In this document: piece by piece, positions 6,419-62,660 of the stretch | How positions within the stretch are numbered: position 1 is the stretch's first letter | How the letters are laid out: the number at the start of each line of letters is the position of its first letter | Source of the DNA: Squalus acanthias | Taxonomy: Eukaryota | Direction of reading: 5' to 3' | NCBI GenBank assembly: GCA_030390025.1 | Contig: CM059432.1 | Coordinates: 84,880,001-84,944,000 of the forward strand | Length of the DNA stretch: 64,000 bases | The notes under the pieces: model-generated | What the model saw: the letters and a program-made list of their open reading frames with translations, nothing else | Databases searched by the model: none | What the model was told of the DNA's origin: nothing | Made by a program: the position numbers and the translations under genes

Positions 6419-7253
6419 ATCTTACCTGAGGAGGCGCGTTGGGAGCGGGACTGCTGGATTCCGGGTTCTAGTCCTGCCTCCAGCGATGTCTGATGAACAG
6501 ACGCTATTTTTCCTTGGTCTTACCGGCCAATTAAGGGAAATTAAGGGAAAACCGGTGTCAGATGACGTCAGTGCATGACGCTTCATCTGCCGGTTTTCTT
6601 AAAGGGACAGGTCCCATAATTTTTTGACAGATGAATTGTCAGTGTTTGACAGCATTGAGGTGCTGTCAAACACTGACAATCACTGTCCAAAGGTGAGCCC
6701 TTGCAGCCAGGCACACCAATTACTCTCTCCTTAGGAGAAAACATATGGCAGCTGCATGTGAGATTGCAGAAGCCATCTGTCAATTCTCCTGATCAGATGA
6801 GGCTTCACAGAAACCTTAAATCTTGTCACCTGCAGATACATATAAACAGAATAAAAATATTTCTCACTACATTCTCTCACCTGTCATACTTACCTGTGCA
6901 CCATTGCACCCATCACACTACCTCTGCAGCTATCATTTGCACACTTACACTGCAGCAGACCCACAGCTCGCCTCGCTGACCCTGGCGGGGTTTCCCGACA
7001 TCCGGAAGCCCGCATCAGCAGGCGGAAAATGATGAAAAGCCTCTTAACTACCTGTTAACTACCGGTTAACAGGCAGTTAATTGGCTCTAATCCCCTTCCC
7101 GCCGCTAGGAGATGGGTCCCTGTGCGAGTCGGGGACCCGCCTCCTGGGAAGATGGTTCGGAGGCAGGTTGGGAGCGGGGTTGGGACCCACTCCCAATTTT
7201 TCCCAGCAGTCCCGCCTTCAAACCCACCTCCTCGGGGCTGGTAAAATCCAGCC
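6419..7253. mobile_element. Non-autonomous Harbinger-like element, right portion only
   Basis: Ends GGTAAAATCCAGCC followed by TAA. No left TIR is visible. Confidence 0.55.
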
Positions 7254-13534: not shown

Positions 13535-15315
13535 ACACCTACATCCGCGATTCCTCTGACGCCCTCCACCACTTTAACAGTTTCCAGTTTCCCGGCCCCA
13601 ACTGCCTCCTTTTCACCATGGACGTACAATCCCTCTACACCTCCATCCCCCACCAGGATGGCCTGAGGGCGCTCCGCTTCTTCCTTGAACAGAGGCCCAA
13701 CCAGTCCCCATCCACCGCCACCCTCCTCCGCCTGGCTGAACTTGTTCTCACATTGAACAACTTCTCCTTTGACTCCACTCATTTCCTCCAAATCAAAGGT
13801 GTTGCTATGGGTACCCGCATGGGTCCTAGCTATGCCTGCCTTTTCGTGGGATATGTGGAACACTCTTTGTTCCAGTCCTACTCAGGTCCCCTCCCTCACC
13901 TCTTTTTCCGGTACATTGACGACTATATCGGTGCCTTTTCCTGCTCTCGCCCCGAACTAGACAATTTCATTCACTTTGCCTCCAATTTCCACCCTTCCCT
14001 CACCTTCAGATAGTTCATCTCCGACTCTTCCCTCCCCTTCCTCGACTTCTCCGTCTCCATCTCTGGGGATAGGTTATTGACCAACATTCACTACAAGCCC
14101 ACTGACTCCCACAGCTACCTGGACTACACTTCCTCCCACCCCGCCTCCTGTAAGGACTCTATTCCCTTCTCCCAGTTTCTCCGTCTCCGCCGCATCTGCT
14201 CCGACGATGCCACCTTCCATACCAGTGCTTCCGACATGTCTTCCTTTTTCCTCAACCGAGGATTCCCCTCTACCGTGGTTGACACAGCCCTCGACCATGT
14301 CCGTTCTATCTCCCGCACTTCTGCCCTCACCCCGGCCCCTCCCTCCCGGAACCACGATAGAGTTCCCCTTGTCCTCACCTTTCACCCCACCAGCCTCCAC
14401 ATTCAACGGATCATCCTCCGCCATTTCCGCCACCTCCAACGTGATCCCACCACCAAACATATCTTCCCCTCACCTCCCCTTTCAGCATTCCGTAGGGACT
14501 GCTCCCACCGAGACACCCTAGTCCACTCCTCTATCACCCCCAGCACCCCTTCCCCCTCGCCCGGCACCTTCCCGTGCAAGCGCAGGAGATGCAACACCTG
14601 CCCTTATACATCCCCCCTTCCCACTCTCCAGGGCCCCAAACACCCCTTCCAGGTGAAACAGCGATTTACTTGTACTTCTTGCAATCTAGTATACTGTATT
14701 CGCTGCTCACGATGTGGTCTCCTCTACATTGGGGAGACCAAACGCAGATTGGGTGACCGCTTTGCGGAACACCTCCGTTCAGTCCGTAAGGGTGACCCCG
14801 AGCTTCCGGTCGCTTGTCATTTTAATTCACCCCTCCACGCCCACTCAGACCTCACCGTCCTCGGCCTCGTGCATTGTTCCACAGAAGCTCAGCGTAAGCT
14901 CGAGGAACAGCACCTCATCTTTCGTTTAGGCACTTTACAGCCTTCCGGACTCAATATCGAGTTCAACAATTTCAGATCATAACCTTGGCCCCTACCACAT
15001 ATATATACATTTTATCCACCCTTTTGGTTCGTGCCTTTTTCCTTTTTTTTTTCTCTCTCTCCCCCTACGGCAGCTGTCTCTCATTCTGCCAGCATTTCAC
15101 ACCTCACCTTTTGTTTCTTAACCTGTCCCATTACCACCTCGTCTTGCCTTGAGCATCTCTTAATGTCTCTACTTATCATAGACCACCCCTTTTGTTCTTT
15201 TATTCCTCCCCCCAGCCTCCCCCTTGCTTTTTTATCCGTTTAATTTCCTGCTCTTTTCTCAGTTCTGACGAAGGGTTTCGACCTGAAACGTTAACTCTGT
15301 TTCTCTCTCCACGGA
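13535..15315 (+). mobile_element. 5'-truncated Penelope-like retroelement (RT plus GIY-YIG) with 3' pseudo-LTR
   Basis: MDVQSLYTSIPH, GVAMGTRMGPSYA, RYIDD, and VYCIRCSRCGLLYIGETKR...RFAEH. A single in-frame TAG at 14011 separates two same-frame ORFs. Confidence 0.95.
15261..15296 (+). ncRNA. Minimal type-I hammerhead ribozyme motif
   Basis: AGTT-CTGACGA-AGGGT TTCG ACCT-GAA-ACGT-T-AACT: core boxes, stem I AGTT/AACT, UUCG-capped stem II, palindromic ACGU stem III. Confidence 0.75.
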
Positions 15316-21802: not shown

Positions 21803-24800
21803 TGTGGTAACACAATACAGCTTCCTGTGACTCGAACTTTATTGCATCACTTCCTGTGATTAGTCCAGGATAAATACTGGACTGATCAGTTGGATCCTGG
21901 AGAGGCATAGAGTAAGACCTCTTTTGTATGTAGCACCTTTTTTAGTTGATTAAAGCTTACTTTAAGTTCACCACGCGTAAGGCTCATTCTTACGACAATT
22001 TAATCAACTTTGGAAAACTTCGCACTCAAACTTTTTGGACGAACTCGGAACTAAGGATCCAGGGAATCACCCATCATGGAAAACATCCTTAAACCATCGC
22101 GTCTTGACTTGGACCCAAACACCCCAGCAGCCGGTAAGGTGTGGAAACACTGGTATCGCACGTTTGACAATTTTCTGGAATATTGTAAGGCGAATGATGA
22201 CTCAAAGTTGCGGATACTCATCAACTGTGTCACCCTGAATGTATTTCAGTATGTGGAGGAATGGGACAGTTACGAGGAGGCAATTCGGAAGCTTAAGAGA
22301 CTATATACTAAGACACCGAATGAGGTCTATGCCAGACATCTACTTGCTACAGCCCAACAAGGGCCGGAGGAATCCATTGATAAATTCCTCCAAGAGCTTC
22401 GCAGACTTAGTATGGACTGTAACTTTCGGGCGGCCTCAGCGGAGCTGTACCGTGAAGAAATGATCCGTGATGCTTTCATCTGCGGGCTTGCCTCCCCATT
22501 TATACGCCAGCGTCTACTGGAAAGTAAGACACTTGAGCTTCAGAGAGCTTATGACATGGCTTGCTCTCTAGATCTGGCAAAAAGAAATGCAGACCTCGGT
22601 CTACTGCCTTAACTACAGTCAGGCAATTTAAGAGGCCACAGGTGAACTCTATTAGGGAGGTCTTTATCCCTGACGATCAATCTGATGACTTCACTGATGA
22701 AGAGGATGATGACCCCACTGTGGCAGCCTCTTGGCAATCTAAGAAATGCTTCTTTTGTGGTGATGAGTTCCACCCTCGGAAATTCTGCCCTGCTCGCAAT
22801 GCGTTTTGCAGTCATTGCAACAAAAAGGGTCATTTTGCAAAGGTTTGCCTATCAAGAGCCTCTATGAGGGCTTATCAAGCTAAGTCCTACCGAACTGCCC
22901 CGGTAAGGGCCTATCAAGATTTTCCGGCTAAAATCTATCATGCTTCCTCTCGAAGAAACACAGCTAGAGTTTCAGCCACTCTTTGTGCAACGACACCACT
23001 TACAGCTGCTTGTCCTCAGAACCTATTCCATGCAGCTACAAAAGCATCAATTAATGGACATACTTTAGATGCCTTAATTGACTCAGGTAGCACTGATAGT
23101 TTCATTAGGGAACAGATTGTTGCAGAGTTAAAGCTACATGTTTTCCCATCGGACCAGGCAGTTGCGATGGCTCAGTCATCACTTAATACCAGAATTTCTG
23201 GCTTTTGTAGGGTTGAAATAATACTTAATGGTCACAGGTATCCCTCCACCTGGCTTTTGGTGCTCAAGGACTTATGTAGTGATCTTATCTTAGGGCTGGA
23301 TTTTCAAAAGCAGCATAAGAAGCTCACCATTGAGTTCGGCGGATCTAAACCTGAACTCACTATTTCTAATATACTACCTTGATTACCGTTCTGTGCAATG
23401 TCAGCAGCTTCACTGGATGAACCCTCACTGTTTTCCAGTATCCCTCCTCGATGCAAACCGATTATAACAAAGTCACGACGTTTCAGTCAGGAAGACCAGT
23501 CTTTTATTGCGGCTGAGATTTCTCGGCTTTTAGCAGAAGATATCATCGAGCCTTGTTCGTCGCCATGGCGCGCCCAGGTCGTTATTGTTAAGAACCCTCT
23601 ACAACCTCACAAGAAACGGCTGTGCATTGACTATTCACAGACCATCAATCAATATACGGACTTGGACGCATACCCATTGCCGCGCATCGATGATATGGTT
23701 AATAAATTGGCTGAGTACACGGTGTTCTCAACATATGATCTAAAAAGTGCCTATCATCAGGTACCCTTGAAGGTCTCAGACAAGCAGTATACGGCCTTTG
23801 AAGCCAATGGACGGCTGTATCAATTTCGTCGCCTCCCCTTTGGGGTCACTAATGGAGTGGCTGTCTTCCAGCGAGCAATGGATGACCTGGTCAAACAGGA
23901 AGACTTGAAGGATACGTTTCCTTATCTGGACAATATTACTGTCGCAGGTCGCAATCAGCGGGAACATGACGCCAATCTCCAACGATTTTGGGATGCACTC
24001 CAGCACCGTAATTTGACATTAAATGCGGCTAAATCCATTGAGTCACAACCAACCATCAACATCCTTGGCTATTGTGTGGGCAATGGCATCATTAAACCTG
24101 ACCCTGAAAGGCTTCGCCCACTCCAAGAACTCCCGCCACCTAAGAATCCGGCCTCCTTGCGCCGGGCCCTCGGCCTGTTTGCATACTATGCTAAATGGAT
24201 TCCTAACTTCTCGGACTGAATCCAACCTCTACTGAAGGCCAGCACATTCCCACTAGACACAGCGGCTGTTGCAGCCTTTAACGTCCTGAAAAAACAGTTG
24301 GAGAAAGCGACTCTTCACTCCATCGATGAGAGTCTTCCTTTTGTCGTTGAGTGTGATGCCTCGGAGGTGGCGATCTCGGCCACTCTGAATCAGGAAGGTC
24401 GTCCGGTGGCATTTTTGTCCAGGACTTTTCAAGGGGCTGAGCTACATTATCCTCCAGTCGAGAAAGAAGCTACAGCCATCATAGAGGCAGTACGGAAGTG
24501 GAGTCACCTCCTAGCTCGCCAGCACTTTACCTTAATCACGGACCAGCGATCGGTCGCCTTCATGCTCGATAATCGAAAACGGACCAAAATTAAAAATAAT
24601 AAAATCCAGCTTTGGAGGCTGGAATTGGCCTCTTTTGGTTACACCATCCACTATCGACCTGGCAAGGAGAATGTGGCTCCAGATACCCTCACACGAGCAT
24701 TCTGCTCCGCCATGGCACCCTCTACGCTCGTAGACATCCATGATGGGTTGTGTCATCCGGGCGTTACTCGCATGCTACACTTCGTGCGGTCCCGAAATCT

Positions 24801-26254
24801 CCCATTCTCTACCGGGGATGTAAAGAAGATGTGCTCGGACTGCAGAGTCTGTGCGGAATTGAAACCTCGGTTTTTCCGCCCCTCGGGTGGTATACTCATA
24901 CATGCGACCCAGCCAATGCAACGGCTTAGCATCGATTTTAAGGGGCCGTTGCCCTCTTCAACTCGCAACACTTATCTATTGACCATGGTTGATGAGTATT
25001 CCCGTTTTCCGTTTGCCTTTCCCTGCCCCAATATGCTGACGTCCACGGTTATCAGCTGCCTTGAGCAGGTATTTGCTTTCTGTGGCATGGCATCCTATGT
25101 TCATTCGGATCGGGGCCCTTCTTTTATGTCAGGAGAACTCAAGGCCTATCTCTCGGAACAGGGTATTGCTGCCAGCAAAACGACGCCTTATCATCTGGTC
25201 GGGAATGGGCAAGTCGAGCGTTTTAACGCTATCATCTGGAATGCGGTACGTCTGGCTTTGAGATCTCGGGGCCTACCCAACCAGCAATGGGAAGCAGTAC
25301 TTCCAGACGCATTACACTCCACACGGTCCCTCCTTTCGACCGCCATAAATACGACGCCTCATGAACGGTTCTTCCGATTTCAGCGTCGCTCATCCTATGG
25401 GATATCTCTCCCGTCGTGGCTGACTGCACCGGGACCAGTGCTACTCCGAAGATATGTCCGGGCGTCTAAGAATGACCCCCTGGTAGATGAGGTTGAGCTC
25501 ACTGACGTCAACCCTACCTACGCCTATATTCGGTATCCTGACGGTCGGGAATCTACCGTGTCATTGCGGGATCTGGCTCCCTGCCCGCCAAAACATAGAG
25601 GGACACCAGGGGATGATATTGTACCAGGCACATCTCTGGGCTCGCCAGGTGCCTCTCATCATGATCTGGATCTGACGCCGGCTGGTACCTCACTCCAGCG
25701 TGCCGACCTGGGGCAGACTGACTATGAGCCCGTCGGGGCTCGCACGCGCAGCCACGATCCACCCTGTACCGTACGCTCGGAAACTGATCTGCCACAGCCC
25801 TGCCCGACACCCGTTCGGGCACCAGTACACAGTCAGGATCGTCCTGACCCCTCACAGAGCGGGCTGGATCACTCGGACTCTGGTCCACGGCCCGCGGCGG
25901 GTAAACGGGCTAGGGGCCCTCTACCGCAACGAGAACCCAAACGGGTGCGGCTCTCCCTCGTCCAGCGGCTACGAAATGGAGGGAGAATGTGGTAACACAA
26001 TACAGCTTCCTGTGACTCGAACTTCATCCCGGCCTCCTAATCTTTTGGGGGGGGGAGAATGTGGTAACACAATACAGCTTCCTGTGACTCGAACTTTATT
26101 GCATCACTTCCTGTGATTAGTCCAGGATAAATACTGGACTGATCAGTTGGATCCTGGAGAGGCATAGAGTAAGACCTCTTTTGTATGTAGCACCTTTTTT
26201 AGTTGATTAAAGCTTACTTTAAGTTCACCACGCGTAAGGCTCATTCTTACGACA
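21803..26254 (+). mobile_element. Ty3/Gypsy LTR retrotransposon (Mag-like gag)
   Basis: 195-bp LTRs at 21803-21997 and 26060-26254 (TG..CA, identical by eye), 5-bp TSD GTAAG, PPT. Domain order is gag (double Cys/His knuckle), PR (DSGS), RT, RNase H (CDAS), IN (HHCC, DFKGP, SDRG). Confidence 0.97.
22076..25995 (+). pseudogene. Gypsy gag-pol with one frameshift and two in-frame TGA stops
   Basis: Frame change near 22590. TGA at 23380 and 24217, with the same frame continuing after each. Confidence 0.9.
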
Positions 26255-30739: not shown

Positions 30740-31830
30740 GTATGGATTTCCCCATGAGGATACCTCGCTTAGCTTTAATTTTAAGGAGGAGGGACAGCAG
30801 CAGCATTTGGTGAGAAGGAGAGTCAGGCAGCCTGGCAAACGACTGCAGCCCACAAGATATTACCACCCCCTCCCAAAGAAGCTATCGGCAGGACAGGTCC
30901 TATGAGGACTTCTCTGAGGAGCTGTGTGTCAGAAAGGTTCGCTCTCCAAAGGTGCCAGTGGTCATCTCTGTGACCTTCTGAATGAAGATCTGAAGCTACG
31001 CTCATCTGCCAACACTGCTCTCTATCTGTGACTAAGAACGTCACCACTGCCCTCATTTTTTTTAAATCTCAAGCTCATTTCAAGCATCCACAGGGGATCT
31101 CTGCAACGTAAGACAGGGAGCAGTAAGGGTATCAGGGAGAAGAAAGGGCACCGGGGAGCAGTAAGGGCACCGGGGAGCAGTAAGGGCACCGGGGAGCAGT
31201 AAGGGCACCGGGGAGCAGTAAGGGCACCGGGGAGCAGTAAGGGCACCGGGGAGCAGTAAGGGCACCGGGGAGCAGTAAGGGTATCAGGGAGAAGAAAGGG
31301 CACCGGGGAGCAGTATGGGCACCGGGGAGCAGTAAGGGCACCGGGGAGCAGTAAGGGTATCAGGGAGAAGAAAGGGCACCGGGGAGCAGTAAGGGCACCG
31401 GGGAGCAGTAAGGGCACCGGGGAGCAGTAAGGGCACCGGGGAGCAGTATGGGCACCGGGGAGCAGTAAGGGCATGCATATGCCAGATCACGGACAGCCTG
31501 TACAGCAGAGTAGCCCACTTCATTATGGGGTTGCTGGCTTCCCCAAGGGACAAGTGTCCAATCGATGGCATCCATGTCGCATTGAACCCCTTCACCTATG
31601 TGAACAGGAAGGGATTCCAGTCTATGAATGTGCACATAGTTTGTGAGGCCATTCAGAGGGTCCTTCATGTCAATGCCCAGTATGCAGGAAGCTTCCATGG
31701 CACATTCATCCCCCAACATTTAGCGCTCCCTCATCTCTTCAGAGAAGAAAATAATATAACCAGATGGCTACTGGGTGACAAGGCATTCCCCTGGGTGGAT
31801 TACCTATATCCTGGCCAGCACTCATCCCAT
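30740..31830 (+). pseudogene. Harbinger (HARBI1-like) transposase remnant
   Basis: IDGIHVAL, YVNRKGFQSMNVHIVC, AQYAGSFH, WLLGDKAFP. Confidence 0.8.
31114..31472 (+). repeat. 19-bp minisatellite (gggcaccggggagcagtaa)n, about 19 copies
   Basis: Direct tandem units, with a recurring variant gggtatcagggagaagaaa. Confidence 0.95.
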
Positions 31831-33195
31831 AATCAACGCCTCCAAAAAGATTGATCAATTGGTCACTGTATTTGCCTACATAACAAGAGCCACTTCACTT
31901 CAAAACCATTGAATATGAAGCACTTTGAGATGTTTCTGAGAGGTGTGATAATGTGGTAAATGCAAACCTTCAAGTTCTCATACCCTTTGAAATAGACTTC
32001 CTTCATGTCTCTCACAAATCTAATCAACAGCTAGCTACAACCTCTTATATTCTATGATTCCAGCAGCTATCTTTAATCATTCTTCATCTAATGATATTTA
32101 TTGCTTCACATTCTACCCCACCTCAAATGGAACTCCCACATCATTTTCATTATTAAAATTGCCTTCAAGAGGCTTAATTTTCTCTTTCATGTGAAGTACG
32201 TTCTCCCCAACAACTTTTAATTCATTATAAAGCCAAAGACCATTCAAGACTAGAATATTACTCCCATATCTGGAAAGCTCTTCTAACACCGCTGCCACAC
32301 TTTTGGATAGGTTACCATAAAAAACTTGCCAATTGATAAGGTGATTAATTTCTCATCTTCAGCTTCCAAACTCTCTCTGTCACAAGTTGTAGTAATTCAT
32401 CTATTGCAATGCGCGAGGACTAGCAGTTGCATGTACTGGGAGCTTTCTCTCTATCTTGTTGAAGGGCAGTGCTCCTCTGAAATTTCCTCTCTTGTTCCTC
32501 TAAGCTCCAAATACAGTGATCGACAGGCTCTTCCTTCGCCCTGCATCTTCACTGAAATCAAGACACATCAGATATGCTGGGAATTTCCTTGGAGCTGCTT
32601 TCGCTCAGCCAGCATAACTTCGCCGGAAGTACAGCATAAACCCCGTTTATTTGTGAAAATGGGGTTTCAGCCGCATTTCCAGCGAAGTTACGGTGGTAGA
32701 ACGAGAGCAGCTACGAGGAAATTTCAGGTCATAATCTTGCACTAACTCGTTCTTACACAGGACTTCAAATCTGTAAAATATTTTACCTCTCCTTCCTCTT
32801 ACCATTGTCAGACTTTTCAAATCTTAGCTTGAAGTAGCTTAATCACTAATCCCTGATTTATCTTGTGTTCTCTTACTCTTTTGAACACTAATGCCTGCAC
32901 TATAACCTTGGCCCTTTAATTTAAAAAAAAATCATAATTGTTTCAGCAAGAGGACAAATAAGTGATACATATGATAAAAGATAATTACCAGCGGGGCAGC
33001 ACTTATCACTAAAATTATTATCTTATAACTAGCCAGTTCTAAAAAAAAGTTATACCAGCAGTATTGTATGTTTTTATTTCAGTTGCTGACTGATCGGCTG
33101 TTCAGTTGCAGGCTTTTCTGTTTTTATTTCAGAATTTCTAACATTCATTTTTTTTCCTTTTTCCTTCACCTTATGAGTGTTCTGTAAACACATAC

Positions 33196-34129: not shown

Positions 34130-35510
34130 ATAGTTTCAGCATTGCACCCCTTGCATTCTCCTCCACCCTCACCACAACCCTACCCTTGTGCCTTTCTCCT
34201 TTCAGGTAGCCAAGAACTCCAACCTGGCCAAGCAGTGGTGGAGGAGCAGGAACTGTAAGAGGAAGAAGGCAGTGATGCTGAAGACACAGCACCATCACTC
34301 GATTTCACACTCGTAGCCACCAACTCAGATACTTAAACTGCGCATACTTTAGAGGGTAGCGTAGAGGTGGGATCTGCATGTGGTGAGTCAGCCGGCACAA
34401 GTGAGCTGCAGCCAGGGCAGGGCTAAAGGGGAGCGCAGGTCCCAGCTCCCTGGAGGGTGAGGTCGCACATGAGTTCTGCTGCACAGGACTCAGCTGAGGA
34501 CTTCGATGGGGCAGCCTTCAGACCAGTACTGATGGGTATACACAATGAGATGCTTGGTGCATTGGCAGGCCTGCCAGAAAGCCTGAATGCAATGTCAAGG
34601 AACATAGAGGAGTCCAGCACCAACCTTGCACAGGGTTTTGTGCAGAGCTTGGAGCCCATCCTTTCCAGCGTGGAAGTGGTGGGCAAATCCATTAGCGCAC
34701 TTGTGGACCCAACCGTCATGCAGTATCTGATGGCGGATGTCGCAGCTTCCATTGCAGCACAATCAGAAGACACCCAACGTCTAAGTGCTGCAGTGGAAGC
34801 TCAAACTGAAGTCATGCAAGCACAGACTGCTGCCACACAAGCACAGACTGCTGCCATCATGGCTACGTTTACCAGTGTTGAAAGGGGCTTGCAGGGTGTC
34901 ACAGCAGTCCACCAATCTGTCATCCAATGGCAGTGGCTCCGTGGAGCACGAACCGGCCATCCTCTCTCAGGATGATAGCATTCGTTCTCCCACCCCTGCC
35001 ACTCAGTCAGTGCCCTTGCTTTTGCCTGTCAGTCAGCCAGCCCGGACTGCTGCCGCCTATGCCAAGGTGGTGCAGTCCGAAGCCTGGTCTTCTAGGCCCA
35101 GAGCTGCTCGAGGTCATCCTCCAAGGTCATCTGTAGTCTCCTCCACTGAAAGTCAGCAGCCTTCCACCAGCCATGCTGCAGCCACTGGGGTAGCACTGCG
35201 TAGGAGCACTAGGACAGGCAAAGGCACATGGAAGACAAGCATTAAGGGACTGCACAAGAGTGATTAGTTGACTTTGGAATGTAATATTGGATGGTTTGAT
35301 TATAAATTTGGTTTGGAATGTTTGTTTTGAGATGGCATTTTTTGTAGCCTTGTGGCCAAGAAGATGCTGTGATGGTCAATAACAGAGGGAGGTAAGGTGT
35401 GGGACTGTTTGTGAATGGAGAATTAGGGTTGCATTCACTGGTACCGCAGTTGAATGAGTCAATCACGGCCAGCCTGGCCAGAAAGGGGCTGTGTTAGTTG
35501 CCTCCTCCCT

Positions 35511-35542
<32 letters not shown>

Positions 35543-36345
35543 CTCCTCTTCAGCTCTTCGCCGTATACATGGTGGCAAGGGCTGTGCCCTCATGATGCCG
35601 AGGTTGTGGAGCATGCAGTAGAAGATGACGAATCTTGAGATGCACTCTGGCAAGTACTGCAGGTCTTCTCCAGAGTGGTCCAGGCAGCGGAAGCATTGTT
35701 TAAGCACGCCAATGGTCTGCTCTGTCAGATTCTGTGTGGCAGCATGGCTTTTGTTATATGCATGCTGCCCACGCATGCTTGGGTTGCCCTTGTCGCCCAG
35801 TAGCCACCCTCTGGTTTGTCGTGGTAGTTCAAATGCTGATGGTACAGCGGACTGCCACAGAATGAAGGCATCATGACTGCTGCCAGGATACCGAGCATTG
35901 ACCTGCATGATGCGCTGAGTATGGTCGCACAGCATAGGCAGCATCCATCCTGATGTGATAGAGCAAACCTCCAAAGTAGAGCAAACCTCCAAAGTGTAGA
36001 AAGTAACCTCTAAATTGTACAACGTAATCTCTCAGCAAAAGTACTGTGAACAAACTCTTTCGCACTAGCAGGTAAGAAAGCAGCTGTGATTACTGAGTAT
36101 TTATTGGCATCCTTGCCTGAGATTGCTTCAGCCCCCTCACTGGCGAGTTTCAGGAAGTCGGCAAACCCATGGACCCGATGTTAAAGTGAGAACAGTGTGT
36201 CAGTATCACTTTAATTGAGCAATTAGCATATGAAAATTGGCAACCCGAGGGGGTTGCACGCAGGCAGCCTAACGCACTGGAGTCAAATGCAGAAATCTGG
36301 AGGTTGGAGCCGGCTTCCTGACGTGCTGTCAATTTTGCTGGTTTT
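34130..36345. mobile_element. Degenerate autonomous-type Harbinger: accessory gene 3' part (+) converging on transposase (-). Continues at 41836-41990.
   Basis: Minus strand VNARYPGSSHDAFIL, WLLGDKG, EQTIGVLKQCFRCLD, MLHN with an acidic tail. Plus-strand coiled-coil-like ORF at 34457-35267. Confidence 0.85.
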
Positions 36346-36688
36346 ACTCTATCCTTGCCCATCCGTTGCCATCCTTTGCCCTTTCTCCCCCAATCTCCTC
36401 TCTTCCACTGTTTAAGTTCCCCTGGCACTAATAATGGGTGCATTTTAGCCCTAACTACAACTTCAAGCAGCAAGTTTAAAGTTACCTGGTCCCACTGCCC
36501 ATCCCCCGACCATGCTTGCTCTTTGTTTTCATCAGTGAGCACTGGATCTTTGCTCAAATCTGGCTTTCAAGTCCCTGGACTTCTCTTGACATCAAGACGA
36601 AGCTACTCCGTTGGACTACACTGCAAGGGTCAGCTGCTATGAATCTGATCTTCTATTCAGATGCTTAAATTTTAAGTTTTAACCCTAC

Positions 36689-38054
36689 AGAGATCACGAG
36701 GTGAGCTCGGGGCCAGAGATCGCGAGGGGAGCTCGGGGCCAGAGATCGCTAGGGGAGCTTGGGGCCGGAGATCGCGAGGGGAGCTCGAGGCCAGAGCTCG
36801 CGAGGGGAGCTCGGGGCCGGAGATCGCGAGGGGAGCTCGGGGCCAGAGATCGCGAGGGGAGCTCGGGGCCAGAGATCGCTAGGGGAGCTCGGGGCCAAAG
36901 GTCGCGAGGGGAGCTCGGGGCCAGGGATCGCGAGGGGAGCTCGGGGCCAGAGATCGCGAGGGGAGCTCGGGGCCGGAGATCGCGAGGGGAGCTCGGGGCC
37001 AAAGATCGCGAGGGGAGCTCGGGGCCAGAGATCGCGAGGGGAGCTCGGGGCCAGAGATCGCTAGGGGAGCTCGGGGCCAAAGGTCGCGAGGGGAGCTCGG
37101 GGCCAGGGATCGCGAGGGGAGCTCGGGGCCAGAGATCGCGAGGGGAGCTCGGGGCCAGGGATCGCGAGGGGAGCTCGGGGCCAAAGATCGCGAGGGGAGC
37201 TCGGGGCCAGAGATCGCGAGGGGAGCTCGGGGCCAAAGGTCGCGAGGGGAGCTCGGGGCCAGGGATCGCGAGGGGAGCTCGGGGCCAGAGATCGGGAGGG
37301 GAGCTCGGGGCCGGAGATCGCGAGGGGAGCTCGGGGCCAAAGATCGCGAGGGGAGCTCGGGGCCAGAGATCGCGAGGGGAGCTCGGGGCCAGAGATCGCT
37401 AGGGGAGCTCGGGGCCAAAGGTCGCGAGGGGAGCTCGGGGCCAGGGATCGCGAGGGGAGCTCGGGGCCAGAGATCGCGAGGGGAGCTCGGGGCCAGGGAT
37501 CGCGAGGGGAGCTCGGGGCCAAAGATCGCGAGGGGAGCTCGGGGCCAGAGATCGCGAGGGGAGCTCGGGGCCAGGGATCGCGAGGGGAGCTCGGGGCCAG
37601 AGGTCGCGAGGGGAGCTCGGGGCCGGAGATCGCGAGGTGAGCTCGGGGCCGGAGATCGCGAGGGGAGCTCGGGGCCAGAGGTCGCGAGGGGAGCTCAGGG
37701 TCAGGGATCGCGAGGGGAGCTCGGGGCCAGGGATCGCGAGGGGAGCTCGGGGCCAGAGCTCGCGAGGGGAGCTCGGGGCCAGGGATCGCGAGGGGAGCTC
37801 GGGGCCGGGGATCGCGAGCGGAGCTCGGGGCCAGGGATCGCGAGCGGAGCTCGGGGCCAGGGATCGCGAGGGGAGCTCGGGGCCTGGGATCGCGAGGGGA
37901 GCTCGTGGCCTGGGATCGCGAGGGGAGCTCGGGGCCAGAGATCGCTAGGGGAGCTCGGGGCCAGTGATCGCGAGGGGAGCTCGGGGTCAGGGATCGCTAG
38001 GGGAGCTCGGGGCCAGAGATCGCTAGGGGAGCTCAGGGTCAGGGATCGCGAGGC
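36689..38054 (+). repeat. 26-bp GC-rich minisatellite (ggggagctcggggccagagatcgcga)n, about 52 copies
   Basis: Direct tandem units with point variants. Confidence 0.97.
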
Positions 38055-38440
38055 TCACAGGCACAAATACAAAAAACTGATGGGTTCCACTAACCTCTCC
38101 CCGGTTAACCTTCACCAGAATATTGGTGCTATTTTGATCTTGTGAAAGACAACATCATTCATGTCCGAGGCCGGGTCCCAGGAGCGAGGATGAGGCCCAG
38201 GAGCGAGGTCGAGGCTCAGGAACAGGGGCGTGAGGAGCAGCGAGGTCGGGGCCCAGGAGTGAGGACAAGCCCAGCAGCATGGTCGAAGCCCAGGAGTGGC
38301 GCAGCGTGGACCAGCAGCAGCGGGGTCGCAGCCCAGGGAAGGTGCAGCACCGGCCAACAGCGAGGTCGGGAGGACCTCACTGCATCCTTTGAAACCCAGG
38401 CAGAGAGGACCTGCGGGAAGGAGGGAGGAGGACAGTAGGA

Positions 38441-41400
38441 GTATGTTTGTGTGTGTGTGCTAGGCCGATGTAGCAGAGCCTGGTCTCCAATCATCTTGGA
38501 TCCCTTGCCATTGGACCAAGACCTTGCTCTGTCAAGCCCGTGTGGTAGCTGGTGTGCAACGGCCAACCCACGTTAAAAGAATTCACGCACAGGCATCTTC
38601 CACCCTTTAAAATGAAGTTCGGAACCTGGAACGTCAGGACCCTCATGGACAACCCCAACAGTGACAGACCAGAACGCAGTACTGCTATCATTGCCCGGGA
38701 GCTCAGACATTTTGACATTGACATCGCCGCCCTAAGCAAGGGCAGGGGAAGGCCAGCTCAAGGAGCAAGGCGGTGGTTACACCTTCTTCTGGAAAGGCAA
38801 ACCTGAAGAAGAACGCCGCCTCCATGGGGTAGGCTTCGCCATAAAAAATGAGCTAGTTGGGCGTCTCAGAGATTCCCCTAGCGGTATAAACGAGCGCCTC
38901 ATGACTCTTCGGCTCACCCTAGCCCGGAACCAGTGCGCTACGATCATCAGTGCGTACGTGCCAACACTGGAAGCCACAGACGAGACCAAAGAGGAATTCT
39001 ACTCCAGCCTCGAACAATCCCTGTCCTGAGTCCCAACGGGCGACAAGCTGATCCTCCTTGGCGACTTTAACGCCAGAGTTGGAAAGGACACAGACCTCTG
39101 GGGAGGTGTGATCGGCAGAGAGGGGGTAGGGAAAGCCAACTCCAACGGTACCCTCCTCCTGTCGAAATGCTTAGAACATGGCCTTGTCATAACCAACACC
39201 TTGTTCCATCAGAGAGACAAGTACAAGGCTTCATGGCAGCACCCTCGCTCCAAGCACTGGCATCTGCTGGACTACGTCATCGTCTGAGCGAGGGACCGCA
39301 AGGACGTCCGCATCATCCACGCCATGACAGGAGCTGACGACTGCTAGACAGACCACCACCTAATCCGCTCTGTCATCTCCATCAACGTAGCCCCAAAACA
39401 GTGGCGGCAACAGAAACAATGCCGCAGGAAAATCAACGCTGGAGCACTCAAAGACCCCGCTAAGAAAGCCTTATTCAGCCTGCGCCTCACAACCAGCCTG
39501 ACGACTCCCAGTGATTCAGAGACACAGAGTGTCCACAGCGCCTGGTCTGCACTCAAGGCCTCCATAATCAGCACCTGTGAAGAGACACTCGGTCACTCGA
39601 CCAGGAAACACCAAGACTGGTTCGATGAGAACGACCAGGAGATCCAGGAGCTAATAAGCCATAAGCGCAAGGCATTCCTGATCTGGAAACAGCAACAGAA
39701 CTCGAGAGCAAGAAAGCAGCTCTACAGACGCCTGAAGGCTGAGGTCCAACAAAAAACTCGCGACCTAAAGAACAGATGGTGGGTGGAGAAAGCGCAGGAG
39801 ATCCAGCAGCTAGCTGACAACCACGACGTGCGTGGATTCTTTAGCGCAGTCAAGACAACCTACGGCCCAAGCACCCAAGGTCCTACCCCACTGCGGGCCA
39901 AGAATGAAGAGGTGCTCATCAAGGACAGAGAGGCAGTCAGTGCCCTCTGGAAGGAGCACTTCGAAGATCTCCTTAACCGAGACTCTGTCTTCGACGCAAG
40001 TGTCCTCAACTCCATCCTGCAGCATGCTACCCGCCACCAACTCAGCACAACCCCAGCCCGGCATGAGGTTGAAAAGGCCATCTGACAACTGAAGAACAAC
40101 AAGGCCTCAGGAGCAGAAGGAATCCCTGCCGAGGCACTAAAGCATGGTGGTGAAGCACTATTGGCGCAAATACATGAACTCATTTCTCTTATTTGGAAGG
40201 AGGAGAGCATGCCAGGGGATCTCAGAAATGCCGTAATCGTGACCATCTTCAAGAAAGATGACAAGTTCAATTGCGGTAATTACAGAGGAATTTCCCTGCT
40301 GTCTGCCACAGGGAAAGTCATCGCAAGAATCTTCCTCAATCGCCTTCTCCCAGTGGCTGAAGAGGTCCTCCCAGAGTCGTAATGCGGATTCCGCCCACTA
40401 AGGGGCACAATGGACATGATCTTCACCGCGCGTCAACTACAAGAGAAATGCAGGGAACAGCATCAACCGCTGTACATGGTCTTCTTTGACCTCACAAAGG
40501 CCTTCGACACTGTCAACCGTGAGGCATTATGGAGTGTCCTCCTCAGATTTGGCCACCCTCAAAAGTTTGTCACCATCCTCCGCCTGCTTCACGACGACAT
40601 GCAAGCCGTGATCCTGACCAATGGATTCACCACAGATCCAATTCACATACGGACTGGGGTCAAGCAAGGCTGTGTCATCGCACCAATGCTCTTCTCGATC
40701 TTCCTTGCTGCAATACTCCATCTCACCCTCAGTAAGCTCCCCGCTGGAGTGGAGCTAATCTAAAGAACAAACGGGAAACTGTTCAACCTCCGTCGCCTCC
40801 AGTCCAGATCCAATGTCGTCCCATCCTCTGTCATCGAATTACAGTATGCAGACGACACTTGCATCTGCGCACACTCGGAGGTCGAACTCCAAACCATCAT
40901 CAACACCTTCACCGAAGTGTATGAGAGCATGGGCCTTACACTAAACATCCGTAAGACAAAGGTCCTCTACCAACCTGCCCCCGCCACACAGTACTGCCCC
41001 CCATTATCAAAATCCACGACGAGGCCTTGGACAACGTGGACCACTTTCCATACCTCGGGAGCCTACTGTCAACAAGGGCAGACGTCGATGACAAAGTCCA
41101 ACACCGCCTTCAGTGTGCCAGTGCAGCCTTTGGTCACCTGAGGAAGAGAGTGTTTGAAGACCAGGACCTCAAACCCGGTACTAAGCTCATGGTCTACAGA
41201 GCAGCAGTGATACCCGCCCTCCTGTATGCTTCAGAGACATGGACCATGTACAGAAGGCACCTCAAAGCACTGGAGAGGTACCACCTCCGCAAGATCCTGC
41301 AAATCCATTGGCAAGATAGGTGCACCAACGTCAGTGTTCTCGCTCAGGCCAACATCCCCAGCATCGAAGCTCTGACCACACTCGATCAGCTCCGACGGAT

Positions 41401-41835
41401 GGGCCACATCGTCCGCATGCCCGACACGAGACTCCCAAAACAAGCGCTTTACTCGGAGCTCCGACACGGCAAGAGAGCCCCAGGTGGGCAGAGCAAATGC
41501 TTCAAGGTCACCCTCAAAGCCTCCTTGAAAAAATGTAACATCCCCACCGACACCTGGGAATCCCTGGCCCAAGACCGCACAAAGTAGAGGAGAAGCATCC
41601 GGGAAGGCGCCGAACACCTTGAGTCTCTTTGCTGGGAGCAAGCGGAAGCCAAGTGCAAACAGCGGAAGGAGCTCACATCAACCCAAGCACCCCACCCACC
41701 CGCCCCTTCAACCACCGTCTGCCCCACCTGTGACAGAGACTGTAGGTCCCGCATTGGACTCATCAGTCACCTGAGAACTCATTTTTAGTGTGGAAGCAAG
41801 TCATCCTCGGTTCCGAGGGACTGCCTAAGAGAGAG
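38441..41835 (+). mobile_element. Full-length RTE-clade LINE, with ORF 38612-41788 disrupted
   Basis: MKFGTWNVRTL endonuclease start, FFDLTKAFD, GVKQGC, QYADD, C-terminal CPTC..SHLRTH zinc finger, (AG)n tail. Multiple stops. Confidence 0.95.
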
Positions 41836-44701
41836 AATTGAGCAATTCGCATATGAAAATTGGCAACCCGAGGGGGTTGCACGCAGGCAGCCTAACGCAC
41901 TGGAGTCAAATGCAGAAATCTGTAGGTTGGAGCCGGCTTCCTGATTTTGCCGGTTTTAACACCCTGCCCGCACCCAAACCCACCCAAGGTTTAATGAAGG
42001 GTTTTATTTTAGAAATTACAAAGAGTCTGGTAGGGTGAAGAGGGAAAGACTACTCTCTTTAGTTTCAGTATTAGTGACAAGAGGTCATCAATTTATAATA
42101 TTCATGGAAGGAGGTTAGGAGAAATGTCTCTAGCCGAAGAGTTAGAGCTTGGAATGCTTTGCCACAAGGAATAGTTGAGGCAGAGACCATTACTCATTTT
42201 AAAAGAAAAGTGGATCAATATTTGAAGCAGAAGAAAATACTAAATTTACTAGCATGTTACCAGATATGAAGGCTCATAGAGAAACTTGAAAAGTCAGGAC
42301 TTTTATCATTAGAGCTGTGAAAGTAAAGGGGGACCTGATAGAGGCCTTCAAGATTACGAAGGATTATGATAAATTGAGCAGCAATAGATTGTTTTCACTG
42401 GTAGAAAAAATAGTCACAAATTTAAGTTAATCTCAAAAAGAAATAAAGGAGGAATTAGAAAAAATCTTTACACAGAGAATGGTTAGAATGTGGAATTCTC
42501 AGATACAGATCATTGGTGAAGCAGAATTCATGAATTCATTAAAAAAGCCATTAGTTGCTTGAAAAGGAGAAATAGTAAAGTATATCGGAAGTGAGCAGTA
42601 GAGTGGGAAATAGACTAGATGGCTCGTAGAGAAAACCAGCAGGACTGACTTCACGGACCAAGTGGCCTGTTTCTGTACTGTAACATTCTATAGGACTGAT
42701 TTTAACTCCCGGTGGAATGCTGGCGGTATCATGGCAGTCTTCATCAGAGGCCCAGCAGATTCTAACTGCTGGGCCTCATTTGAATGTCACCAGTCAGCTG
42801 CTCACCCATTTCAGGCAGAAGGCGGCAATTGTCCAGGCGGGATAGGATTGGCCGCCTGCCGGCAGCAAGGTAAGTCTGGGAGGGGAGATATTGTGAGGGT
42901 CTCACAGCTGGGGAGGGTGGGAATCAAAGAGCAGCAGAGGTCCGGACTTTCCTTGTGGGGTCTGGAGGAGTACTCCTGCTAGGTATTCTGCGGCGACTGT
43001 CTCACATCCTGACTCCCCAAAGCCTTTCCACCATCTACAAGGCATAACTCAGGAGTGTGATGGAATACTCTCCACTTGCCTGGATGAGTGCAGCTCCAAC
43101 ACTCAAGAAGCTCGACACCATACAGGACAAAGCAGCCCGCTTGATTGGCACCCCATCCACCACCTTAAACATTCACTCCCTCCACCACCAACACACCGTG
43201 GCTGCAGTGTGTACCTTCTACAAGATGCACTGCAGCAACTCGCCAAGGCTTCTTCGGCAGCACCTCCCAAACCCGGGACCTCTTCCACCTAGAAGGACAA
43301 GGGCAGCAGGCGCATGGGAACACCACCACATCCAAGTTCCCCTCCAAGTCACACACCATCCTGGCTTAGAAGTATATCGCCGATCCTTCATCGTCGCTGG
43401 GTCAAAATTTGTGACTATATTTCCTAGCATGGTTCAAGGCCAGAGATAATTGCACCGGGTGCACAATGATAATTCAGTCTCCATTTTAAAGTCATGCATT
43501 CTGTCTTTATTTTTAAATAATACTTTGATTTTATATTATTATTTATAGTTAAATGGCAAGTTGGGAAGGAGAGTAGCAGAGGTGGTTGGTGCATAGGAAT
43601 TTCTCTGCAGTACAGGTTGAGAAGCTAGGAGGTTGAGATGCTACATCACCACCACTGGTGGGAGGGTGTCATTACAGCATGACAAATTTACATAGGAAGG
43701 TTCCATTGTAAATATGGCCATAGGAATGTATAATTTTAAAAATTGACACAGGAACTGGATGTAGAAGTCAGATTTTTTAATATACTATAGTTAGATATGC
43801 AGGAATAGTGCATTGCATGAAGCAAGCTTTAGCATCACATGAATTAACTTGTAGCAGACTGTGTGTGTAAATTAAGTTCTGCAGTCATATTAAAGGTCAA
43901 ATGGAAGATGTGCTGGTGGAGCAGGTAGCCTGTGGAATGTGTTCTCATACCATTTTCAAGCTCCCACATTCTCAAAGCCTGCTGGCAGGAATGATTCCAC
44001 TGCACAGAAAATCCACTGTAACTAACGGAAATAACTTACCGATTTGTCTTTTCTTCTTGTCAGGAAATATCTGATCTTAATTCAGTATCTTGACTGACAG
44101 CTCAGCCAGGATCAGAAACTCAGTGTGTGGACTGATAAGTATTACTATAACAATTTGCTTGCATTACTAGGTCACTCAATTTCACTTAATTTTTTTGTGC
44201 TTTTACGCTTATTAAGGTTAGTGCAAGGGAGTGGAGGACTTTCAATATTGTCAGCAACCAGAACTTCCAGGTCAGGTCCAGCATGGAGTGGACACAGAGT
44301 AAAAGCCCTTTCACTATGCCCCAGAAACGTATCTCAACCCCAACCTCAGAAGAGCGCTCCCTTTTGCACCACGATGACATTTTTTCAATTCCTACCACGG
44401 TCATCTTGTGGTCTCTAAGTGAGATTACCAACTTTATGCCAAATTAAGGATAGTTTTGTGGTTTATTCCCATGGGAACTAGATTAAGATTACCCAAAGTC
44501 ATTTTACCTAGGACCCTTACAGCAAGTAGACAGGGGACACTTTTGTTCAATTGGCCTGGGCTAGATTCAAATCTATTTCCCCAAAGGTGAACATTTTTTT
44601 TAAACAAGTATGATCGAGATAATTGCAGAGTCTCAAGCAGAGAAATGCTTTTTCTTTTGTTATAGATTTAAGTTTATGCCTAAAAAAGAGTAAGACAAAT
44701 A

Positions 44702-61660: not shown

Positions 61661-61915
61661 TCTTGGCTATATCCAATTTCTAGTCCAAAGCCTGTGCCTG
61701 ACATGACTGGGAATTAGACTGGACCTGATATTGGCCCAGCTGTTGAGCGGTAAGCCAATGAGCATCAGTTTTAGTGCTGAGATCAGCACCACAATCATGT
61801 TAATGAGGATTGAGCACAAATTTTGCATGCTACCTAGACCATTTTGACCCGGTGCAGCTTAACATCGTTGGGCCATGACACCGCCTGTTTTGTGGCCATA
61901 TCCAATTTTTAGCCC

Positions 61916-62660
61916 AATGGTTTTGGTCGTCCCAGTGTTTAGTTGGAGGAAGTTATAGCTCATTCAAAACTGGATGTTGGACAACCAATTTGAGAGTATA
62001 GAGCGAGTTGAAGGGTTAAGGAAGGTGTGGAAAGACAGAGCTGGGTGTCATCAGCATACATATGGAAGTTGACCTTTTGCTTTTGATGATAAACCAAGGA
62101 ACAGCATTTATATGAGGAAGCAGGGGGCCTCCAAAGGGTGGGAAGAAAAGCCATTGATACATCTGCTCTGGCTACAACAGGGCAGATAAGAATGGAACCA
62201 AGCAAGGGGAGTCCCATAGGGATGTTGGAGGAGGATCATGTGATTGACTTTGTTGAAAGCTGAAATGAGATCAAGGAAAATGAGGAGGGATAAGGCACCA
62301 CTGTCACAGTCAATAAGAATGTCATTTATCATTTTGATTAGGGCTGTTTCAGTGTTATGGAAGCGGCAGAAACCTGATTGGAGGGTTTCCCACAGGAGAG
62401 GTAACATTGTTGGGCCATGACACCGCCTGTTTTGTGGCCATATCCAATTTTTAGCCCAATGGTTTTGGTCGTCCCAGTGTTTAGTTGGAGGAAGTTATAG
62501 CTCATTCAAAACTGGATGTTGGACAATTAAGGACCTTGGAGACGAAAGAGGTTGTAGGTGGGACAGTAGTTAATGAGGACAGAGAGGTCATTGGTGGATT
62601 TTTTGAGGAGTGGGATGATGGTGGTGCTTTTGAATAGTTGTGTCTGAAGAGAGGAAACCA
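61916..62660 (-). mobile_element. Degenerate L2 fragment
   Basis: [26 protein letters not shown]. Confidence 0.8.

Follow-up and report, generated by a model that had tools for sequence, protein, structure and literature searches.

How does a long interspersed nuclear element (LINE) come to lie between two copies of a direct repeat of more than 100 bp, with a minisatellite ahead of its start codon? The question is raised by a 64-kb stretch of the Squalus acanthias genome (assembly GCA_030390025.1, contig CM059432.1, positions 84,880,001 to 84,944,000), referred to here as the window, in which a decayed LINE of the RTE type is flanked by such a repeat. The repeat is best read as the ~134-bp target-site duplication (TSD) of one RTE insertion, a reading that the sequence makes probable. 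The analysis covered the 64-kb window, with its one copy of this RTE family, together with distant relatives and the literature. The relatives comprised 79 metagenome-contig loci (best 80 of 448, 38-59% identity) and one prokaryote-genome locus; 60 loci with upstream sequence were used for the comparison of leaders, and 40 complete loci for the TSD check. The RTE protein found no relatives in viral contigs and one short match in prokaryote genomes.

A long direct repeat around an RTE-type LINE

BLAST within the window aligned 36213-36321 with 41836-41944 over 109 columns with 2 mismatches (98%, E 6e-48), and beyond an 11-nt gap 15 more bases paired with 1 mismatch (36332-36346 with 41944-41958). 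The initial annotation had described a 109-bp repeat with 2 mismatches and some 14 bp of further similarity past an indel; the alignment confirms that this repeat is real and longer than first stated, with 123 aligned bases, 3 substitutions and an 11-base gap over its whole length. As had also been noticed, the right copy begins where the (AG)n tail of the LINE ends, with one A common to both, and the target site reads TTT/AATT. Unmatched sequence, a 26-bp minisatellite, a GC-rich segment and then the RTE were seen between the copies in the order originally given (Table 1). No third copy of the repeat was found within the 64-kb window. A 7-14-base piece of the target start is absent from 36330-38640, and the LINE therefore lacks a short TSD of its own.

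The single open reading frame (ORF) of the LINE encodes an apurinic/apyrimidinic endonuclease (APE), a reverse transcriptase (RT) and a C-terminal zinc-finger-like motif. Pfam RVT_1 matches were found in the ORF, and its homologues carry PF03372/PF14529 and PF00078 across the whole query. The frame is interrupted by 6 stops among the 750 codons of 38736-40985 (3 of them non-CpG, ~3.6%) and by at least 3 frameshifts, and three of its four in-frame CGA codons have decayed. Only repeat-derived frames, and no large ORF1, lie upstream of it. A Pristiophorus japonicus protein (82% over the endonuclease) is among the nearest named proteins, others being from Heptranchias perlo (73%) and Anolis carolinensis (59%), and these matches point to a cartilaginous fish; none carries the label RTE at its source. 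The probable assignment to the RTE clade is made here from architecture, a single APE-RT ORF joined to a 47-nt 3' untranslated region (UTR) with a microsatellite tail, as in the available text of PMC1291365. An (AG)n tail also ends 2 of the 40 complete relatives (L001 and L071). Five of the related loci (L021, L043, L051, L069 and L074) lie within or abut (GT)n/(ATGT)n microsatellites, in four cases on either side.

Next to the repeat, which is situated outside its 5' side, is a Harbinger nuclease remnant, a minus-strand DDE_Tnp_4 fragment (Pfam PF13359, E 1e-14). Plus-strand ORFs at 34427-35267 gave no Pfam match and may represent the second Harbinger gene. When the flanks of the insertion were rejoined at the target site, the best match in the window was the end of a Harbinger-type element (7163-7228), which spans the join and uses the 11 bases present only in the left copy. 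That end belongs to a non-autonomous Harbinger-type element (6430-7253) with an internal palindrome at 6622-6691. A second purine-rich minisatellite (31116-31473; 19-bp unit, 18.8 copies) fronts another Harbinger nuclease remnant at 31393-31851, and has no significant relation to the 26-bp array.

Table 1. Features of the repeat-flanked LINE and its target, in window coordinates
Feature	Position	Strand	Description
Harbinger-type DNA transposon remnant	34427..36212	-	Insertion target; DDE_Tnp_4 fragment 35462-36031
Left direct-repeat copy	36213..36346	+	134 bp; holds 11 bases missing on the right; putative 5' TSD
X1	36347..36687	.	341 bp; CpG observed/expected (o/e) 0.25; search for homologues negative; either host DNA that was captured or the leader's far 5' end
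26-bp GC-rich minisatellite	36688..38053	+	52.5 units; CpG o/e 0.98
X2	38054..38160	.	107 bp, AT-richer; CpG o/e 0.24; native leader or captured
GC-rich leader	38161..38461	+	Degenerate 19-bp units (38166-38296), closing (GT)n; probably native RTE 5' UTR
Structured RNA module of RTE leaders	38462..38605	+	Long stem with inner stem, then second stem
RTE ORF	38612..41788	+	From ATG to stop; disabled, full-length, single ORF
3' UTR	41789..41835	+	47 nt; (AG)n tail at end
Right direct-repeat copy	41836..41958	+	123 bp; putative 3' TSD
C-rich sequence	41959..41995	+	Probably Harbinger arm continuing toward its end; suggestive only

One insertion or a templated copy

According to the available text of PMC6007223, animal RTE elements normally leave TSDs of 7-15 bp that start with A and overlap the tail by 1 nt. 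The LINE described here departs from the first of these traits, which is usual but not defining, in having a repeat of 134 bp, about tenfold the customary size. It does share the 1-2-nt overlap that characterises target-primed reverse transcription (TPRT), with the right copy adjoining the tail by a 1-nt overlap. The proposal of the initial annotation, that of a single insertion whose TSD is very long, is supported and probable: the repeat abuts the tail, begins with A at the one-base overlap and is accompanied by no short TSD. In HeLa cells, as many as 10% of L1 insertions have been reported to carry TSDs longer than 100 bp, and in cells deficient in nucleotide excision repair (NER) most do; these were put down to a distal second nick (PMC5223499, in the part available).

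The age of the repeat can be set against that of the LINE. The copies show 1.2% divergence per copy (95% interval 0.25-3.6%). In the ORF, 17 of ~530 non-CpG sites have changed when decay is measured in columns invariant among 12 relatives, giving 3.2% (1.9-5.1%) as an upper bound. The intervals overlap, and a common age for repeat and LINE is compatible with these figures, though the fit is loose. Two joined haplotypes that show the target twice would also produce a repeat, an assembly artefact that we consider highly improbable: such a join must happen to coincide with the tail, and 3 substitutions plus an 11-bp gap in 134 bp exceed the usual difference between alleles.

Three observations weigh against a single insertion with a long TSD. 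First, the copies of the repeat seem a little younger than the ORF, the probability of 3 or fewer substitutions being 0.05 at 3.2% and 0.14 at 2.5%. Second, the window holds another direct repeat, of 125 bp and 99% identity (61860-61984 and 62402-62526), which has no LINE tail, and such repeats therefore arise here by other routes. Third, a long TSD was seen in none of the 40 complete relatives, shared microsatellites at both ends aside, a weak result because these relatives are distant (38-59%) and their contigs probably collapsed. As to the rejoined site, 9 of 40 shuffles reached its score, and the query had been picked after the likeness was noticed; that the Harbinger arm runs on across the repeat is no more than suggested.

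On another account, the repeat would not be a TSD at all. One copy would instead have been made by templated repair or replication template switching, and X1 and the array would have arrived apart from the RTE. The tail-less copy at 62402-62526, which came from 540 bp away, provides an example of such an event in the window, and both the lower divergence of the repeat copies relative to the ORF and the only suggestive arm continuity would fit. A templated copy would, however, have landed exactly at the end of the tail by chance, and the RTE must then have left no short TSD, so that this origin appears unlikely. The copy at 62402-62526 itself spans a MITE-like (miniature inverted-repeat transposable element) end and L2-like sequence, and was templated into an L2-like LINE, where it replaced a few tens of bases.

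A 195-bp repeat at 21803 and 26060 was considered as a second long TSD and rejected, as it is the pair of long terminal repeats (LTRs) of a Gypsy element. This young LTR retrotransposon (21803-26254) has identical 195-bp LTRs, a 5-bp TSD and a gag-pol region with stops, and a ~40-50-bp additional copy of the LTR start lies at 25978-26027. A Penelope-like GIY-YIG frame at 14014-14982 reached a Pfam E of 3e-4, under the cut-off.

The RNA module and the sequence ahead of the ORF

If the repeat is the TSD of one insertion, the question becomes how much of the sequence between its left copy and the start codon belongs to the element. The leader of the LINE contains a structured RNA module that begins 151 nt before the ORF. 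A profile built from 8 relatives, with the window left out, found 38480-38601 at E 2.9e-14, plus 35 of 80 loci (L001, L004, L005, L051 and L061 among them). Two-sided changes were present at 16 of 19 predicted pairs in 20 sequences, and on 4 of 5 measures none of 500 shuffles scored as high, the structure having been derived from the same alignment. Conserved letters in the loops hint at a pseudoknot, and no Rfam family matches the module. Most relatives have the module start 430-520 nt before the ORF (201 in one, 738 in another), and the shark copy is without ~330 nt of leader that the relatives have between module and ORF.

Same-family pairs with differing flanks gave common leaders of 704-932 nt in five families; one more pair, sharing 1450 nt, is probably a single locus seen twice, and leaders of 315 and 586 nt came from another two groups. 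Four related families in which the 5' end is defined and the module was detected keep 224-408 nt of leader upstream of it; by analogy, the native 5' end of the RTE probably lies near 38050-38240. Leaving the array aside, the shark copy has 748 nt ahead of the module, as against the relatives' 224-408 nt, and this sequence showed no match to their leaders. The GC-rich stretch 38161-38461, and likewise 38161-38611, is probably native RTE leader, since it falls inside the relatives' 224-408 nt and its CpG level of 0.57 matches the 0.62 of the ORF. The "2.1 kb of extra 5' sequence" of the initial annotation was in this respect overstated. The element's own leader should account for some 0.22-0.41 kb upstream of 38462, and the 1.37-kb array is at least partly of post-insertion origin, which leaves only 0.35-0.45 kb of uncertain origin, transduced or native.

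The array has grown recently. Within it, 36948-37233 (units 11-21) and 37286-37571 (units 24-34) form a 286-bp higher-order duplication with 1 mismatch. Because this duplicate (1/286) is closer than the TSD copies are to each other, the growth took place at least partly in situ and after insertion. Deamination was seen at only 4 of the 156 CpG sites of the array. In X1 and X2 together, 5 CpG were observed where 12 would be expected at the level of the element (P 0.02), and nothing in the rest of the window matches X1 to any notable degree. X1 may bear some resemblance to an LTR-type shark repeat; if it belonged to such a repeat family, this would suggest a promoter for read-through. The 0.35-0.45 kb of CpG-poor sequence is either captured, which is slightly favoured, or native; given a single event, a foreign origin of X1 has a little over an even chance.

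Two findings speak against capture. Without the array, the sequence between TSD and ATG measures 899 bp, inside the range of the relatives' whole leaders (704-932 nt in the five families), and one of five relatives (L031) has an equally CpG-poor native leader. The match in length also supports an account in which the same TPRT event and long TSD are retained and nothing is captured, so that 36347-38611 would be the family's own 5' UTR, with ~0.9 kb of unique sequence and an array of CpG-rich monomers, variable in length and comparable to the monomers of mouse L1. This account is a close rival, while falling clearly short of an even chance. There is no poly(A) signal at the junctions, and the CpGs of the array are nearly intact when three of the four CGA codons have decayed, which an unmethylated promoter or recent homogenisation would give. 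Sawshark gene models presumably have GC-rich tandem units ahead of related RTE leaders. In L1, tandem units occur and leaders can reach 3.2 kb (PMC5381506, in the part available).

A fully native leader is, on the other hand, difficult to reconcile with the relatives' leaders, which extend only 224-408 nt upstream of the module. The match in length may be due to chance, because ~330 nt between module and ORF are absent here. X1 and X2 are CpG-poor, and the resemblance between the 26-bp unit and the 19-bp leader units lacks significance (176-488 of 1000 shuffles scored equally well). No protein model with the leader or the array was found, one frame of each being searched: the leader translation, in one of six frames, yielded 284 candidates among proteins of 266-2000 aa, none of which scored, and the array translation gave 7 matches at 27-38% identity that are compositional, with no other copy found. 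Exact motifs from the leader and the 26-bp array had no matches in viral contigs.

Instead of read-through, capture within a single event might also have involved a switch by the reverse transcriptase to a second template, either RNA or DNA. L1 chimeras of this kind are known (bioRxiv 10.1101/2025.02.02.635956, in the part available), but the front piece has no poly(A) signal, no tRNA and no Rfam RNA at gathering score, and we consider such a switch improbable. A switch to the 3' end of an mRNA, as one version of the template switching envisaged in the initial annotation, found no support, as neither AATAAA nor ATTAAA occurs in 36200-42100. No HDV (hepatitis delta virus), twister or other Rfam RNA was detected in the leader of the shark copy, and a ribozyme descriptor reached a maximum of 9 in the window; a score of 13 was reached in 3 of 60 relatives, and scores of 8-11 in 7 of 49 background tiles. 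Leaders of L057 and L060 were among the 3 of 60 with HDV-like descriptor matches, and an HDV-like candidate upstream of the RTE ORF in L061 (87-160) scored 36 bits with Rfam, below the gathering score. Rfam searches of relatives found no ribozyme in a set of 19, none at gathering score in a set of 20, and one HDV-like match in a set of 2.

The mechanism that best accommodates these observations, and that we advance tentatively as being somewhat short of an even chance, is TPRT with a distal second nick and 5' transduction by read-through, followed by growth of the array. The RTE endonuclease would have nicked the arm of an old Harbinger element at the target site, and reverse transcription would have been primed on the (AG)n tail with the one-base overlap. 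The second strand would have been cut ~134 bases downstream, and not at the usual 10-12, so that fill-in would duplicate 134 bp; the right copy would later have lost 11 bases. The cDNA would carry the whole RTE with its own leader reaching to ~38050-38240, and ahead of it ~0.35-0.45 kb of CpG-poor, host-like DNA together with a shorter 26-bp array. This front DNA would most likely stem from a read-through transcript made at the source locus, and the array would then have expanded in place.

Relation to known elements and significance

Long TSDs and 5' additions are already known for other LINEs; the present case is one decayed germ-line copy. The rotifer element R9 reportedly makes long TSDs regularly, and C. 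elegans RTE-1 is said to have a repeat of ~200 bp, although no passage stating this was found in the literature searched. SVA elements carry a GC-rich variable-number tandem repeat.

Among RTE-clade LINEs, C. elegans RTE-1, schistosome SR3 and Perere-3 resemble the shark copy in a single APE-RT ORF of ~1060 codons, a very short 3' UTR with a microsatellite tail and a TSD that begins with A, as described in the available parts of PMC1291365, PMC6007223 and PMC8501958. The shark copy differs from them in its TSD, 134 bp as against 7-15, and in the 2.3 kb from TSD to ATG with a minisatellite. A twister variant is present at the 5' end of the RTE Perere-3 (PMC8501958, in its available part), whereas no twister or HDV-like ribozyme was found at the 5' end of the shark copy. 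L1 in cultured or NER-deficient cells shows, as here, a repeat of more than 100 bp starting at the tail of the element (available text of PMC5223499 and PMC4245944); the shark case differs in being one germ-line copy in a cartilaginous fish. L1 5' transductions and chimeras, of which 17 mRNA or long noncoding RNA cases in hg38 are given in the available part of bioRxiv 10.1101/2025.02.02.635956, likewise place non-coding sequence ahead of the element inside one TSD. Unlike these, the shark front piece has no splice or poly(A) marks that we could find, and is partly native leader. The monomers of L1 5' UTRs resemble the shark array in being CpG-rich tandem units upstream of the ORF, but they measure 70-650 bp and are family-wide, whereas the shark units are 26 bp long and were seen in one copy (PMC5381506, in the part available). 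No account of this RTE family or of the RNA module was found in the literature, of which coverage was partial, and the family is not described in the available text of PMC4245944, PMC1852546, PMC13708176, PMC6765202 or PMC5737381.

The shark copy would represent a germ-line example of a rare, known outcome, in which a distal second nick duplicates more than 100 bp. TSD searches that stop at ~50 bp, as in the available text of PMC6007223, would miss such cases. It is unlikely that TSDs of more than 100 bp are a regular product of the family and that an unmethylated array of CpG-rich 26-bp units lies in or ahead of its leader; if both were so, the family would spread minisatellites and small duplications autonomously and in the manner of SVA. 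Were either the long TSDs or the array family-wide, the family would offer a natural system for studying the choice of the second-strand cut and the seeding of minisatellites by LINEs. This matters also because RTE-1 proteins are under development for gene insertion (PMC13708176, in its available part). The covarying RNA module, present in RTE leaders as far apart as that of the shark copy and those of distant metagenome loci, may outweigh the repeat in interest.

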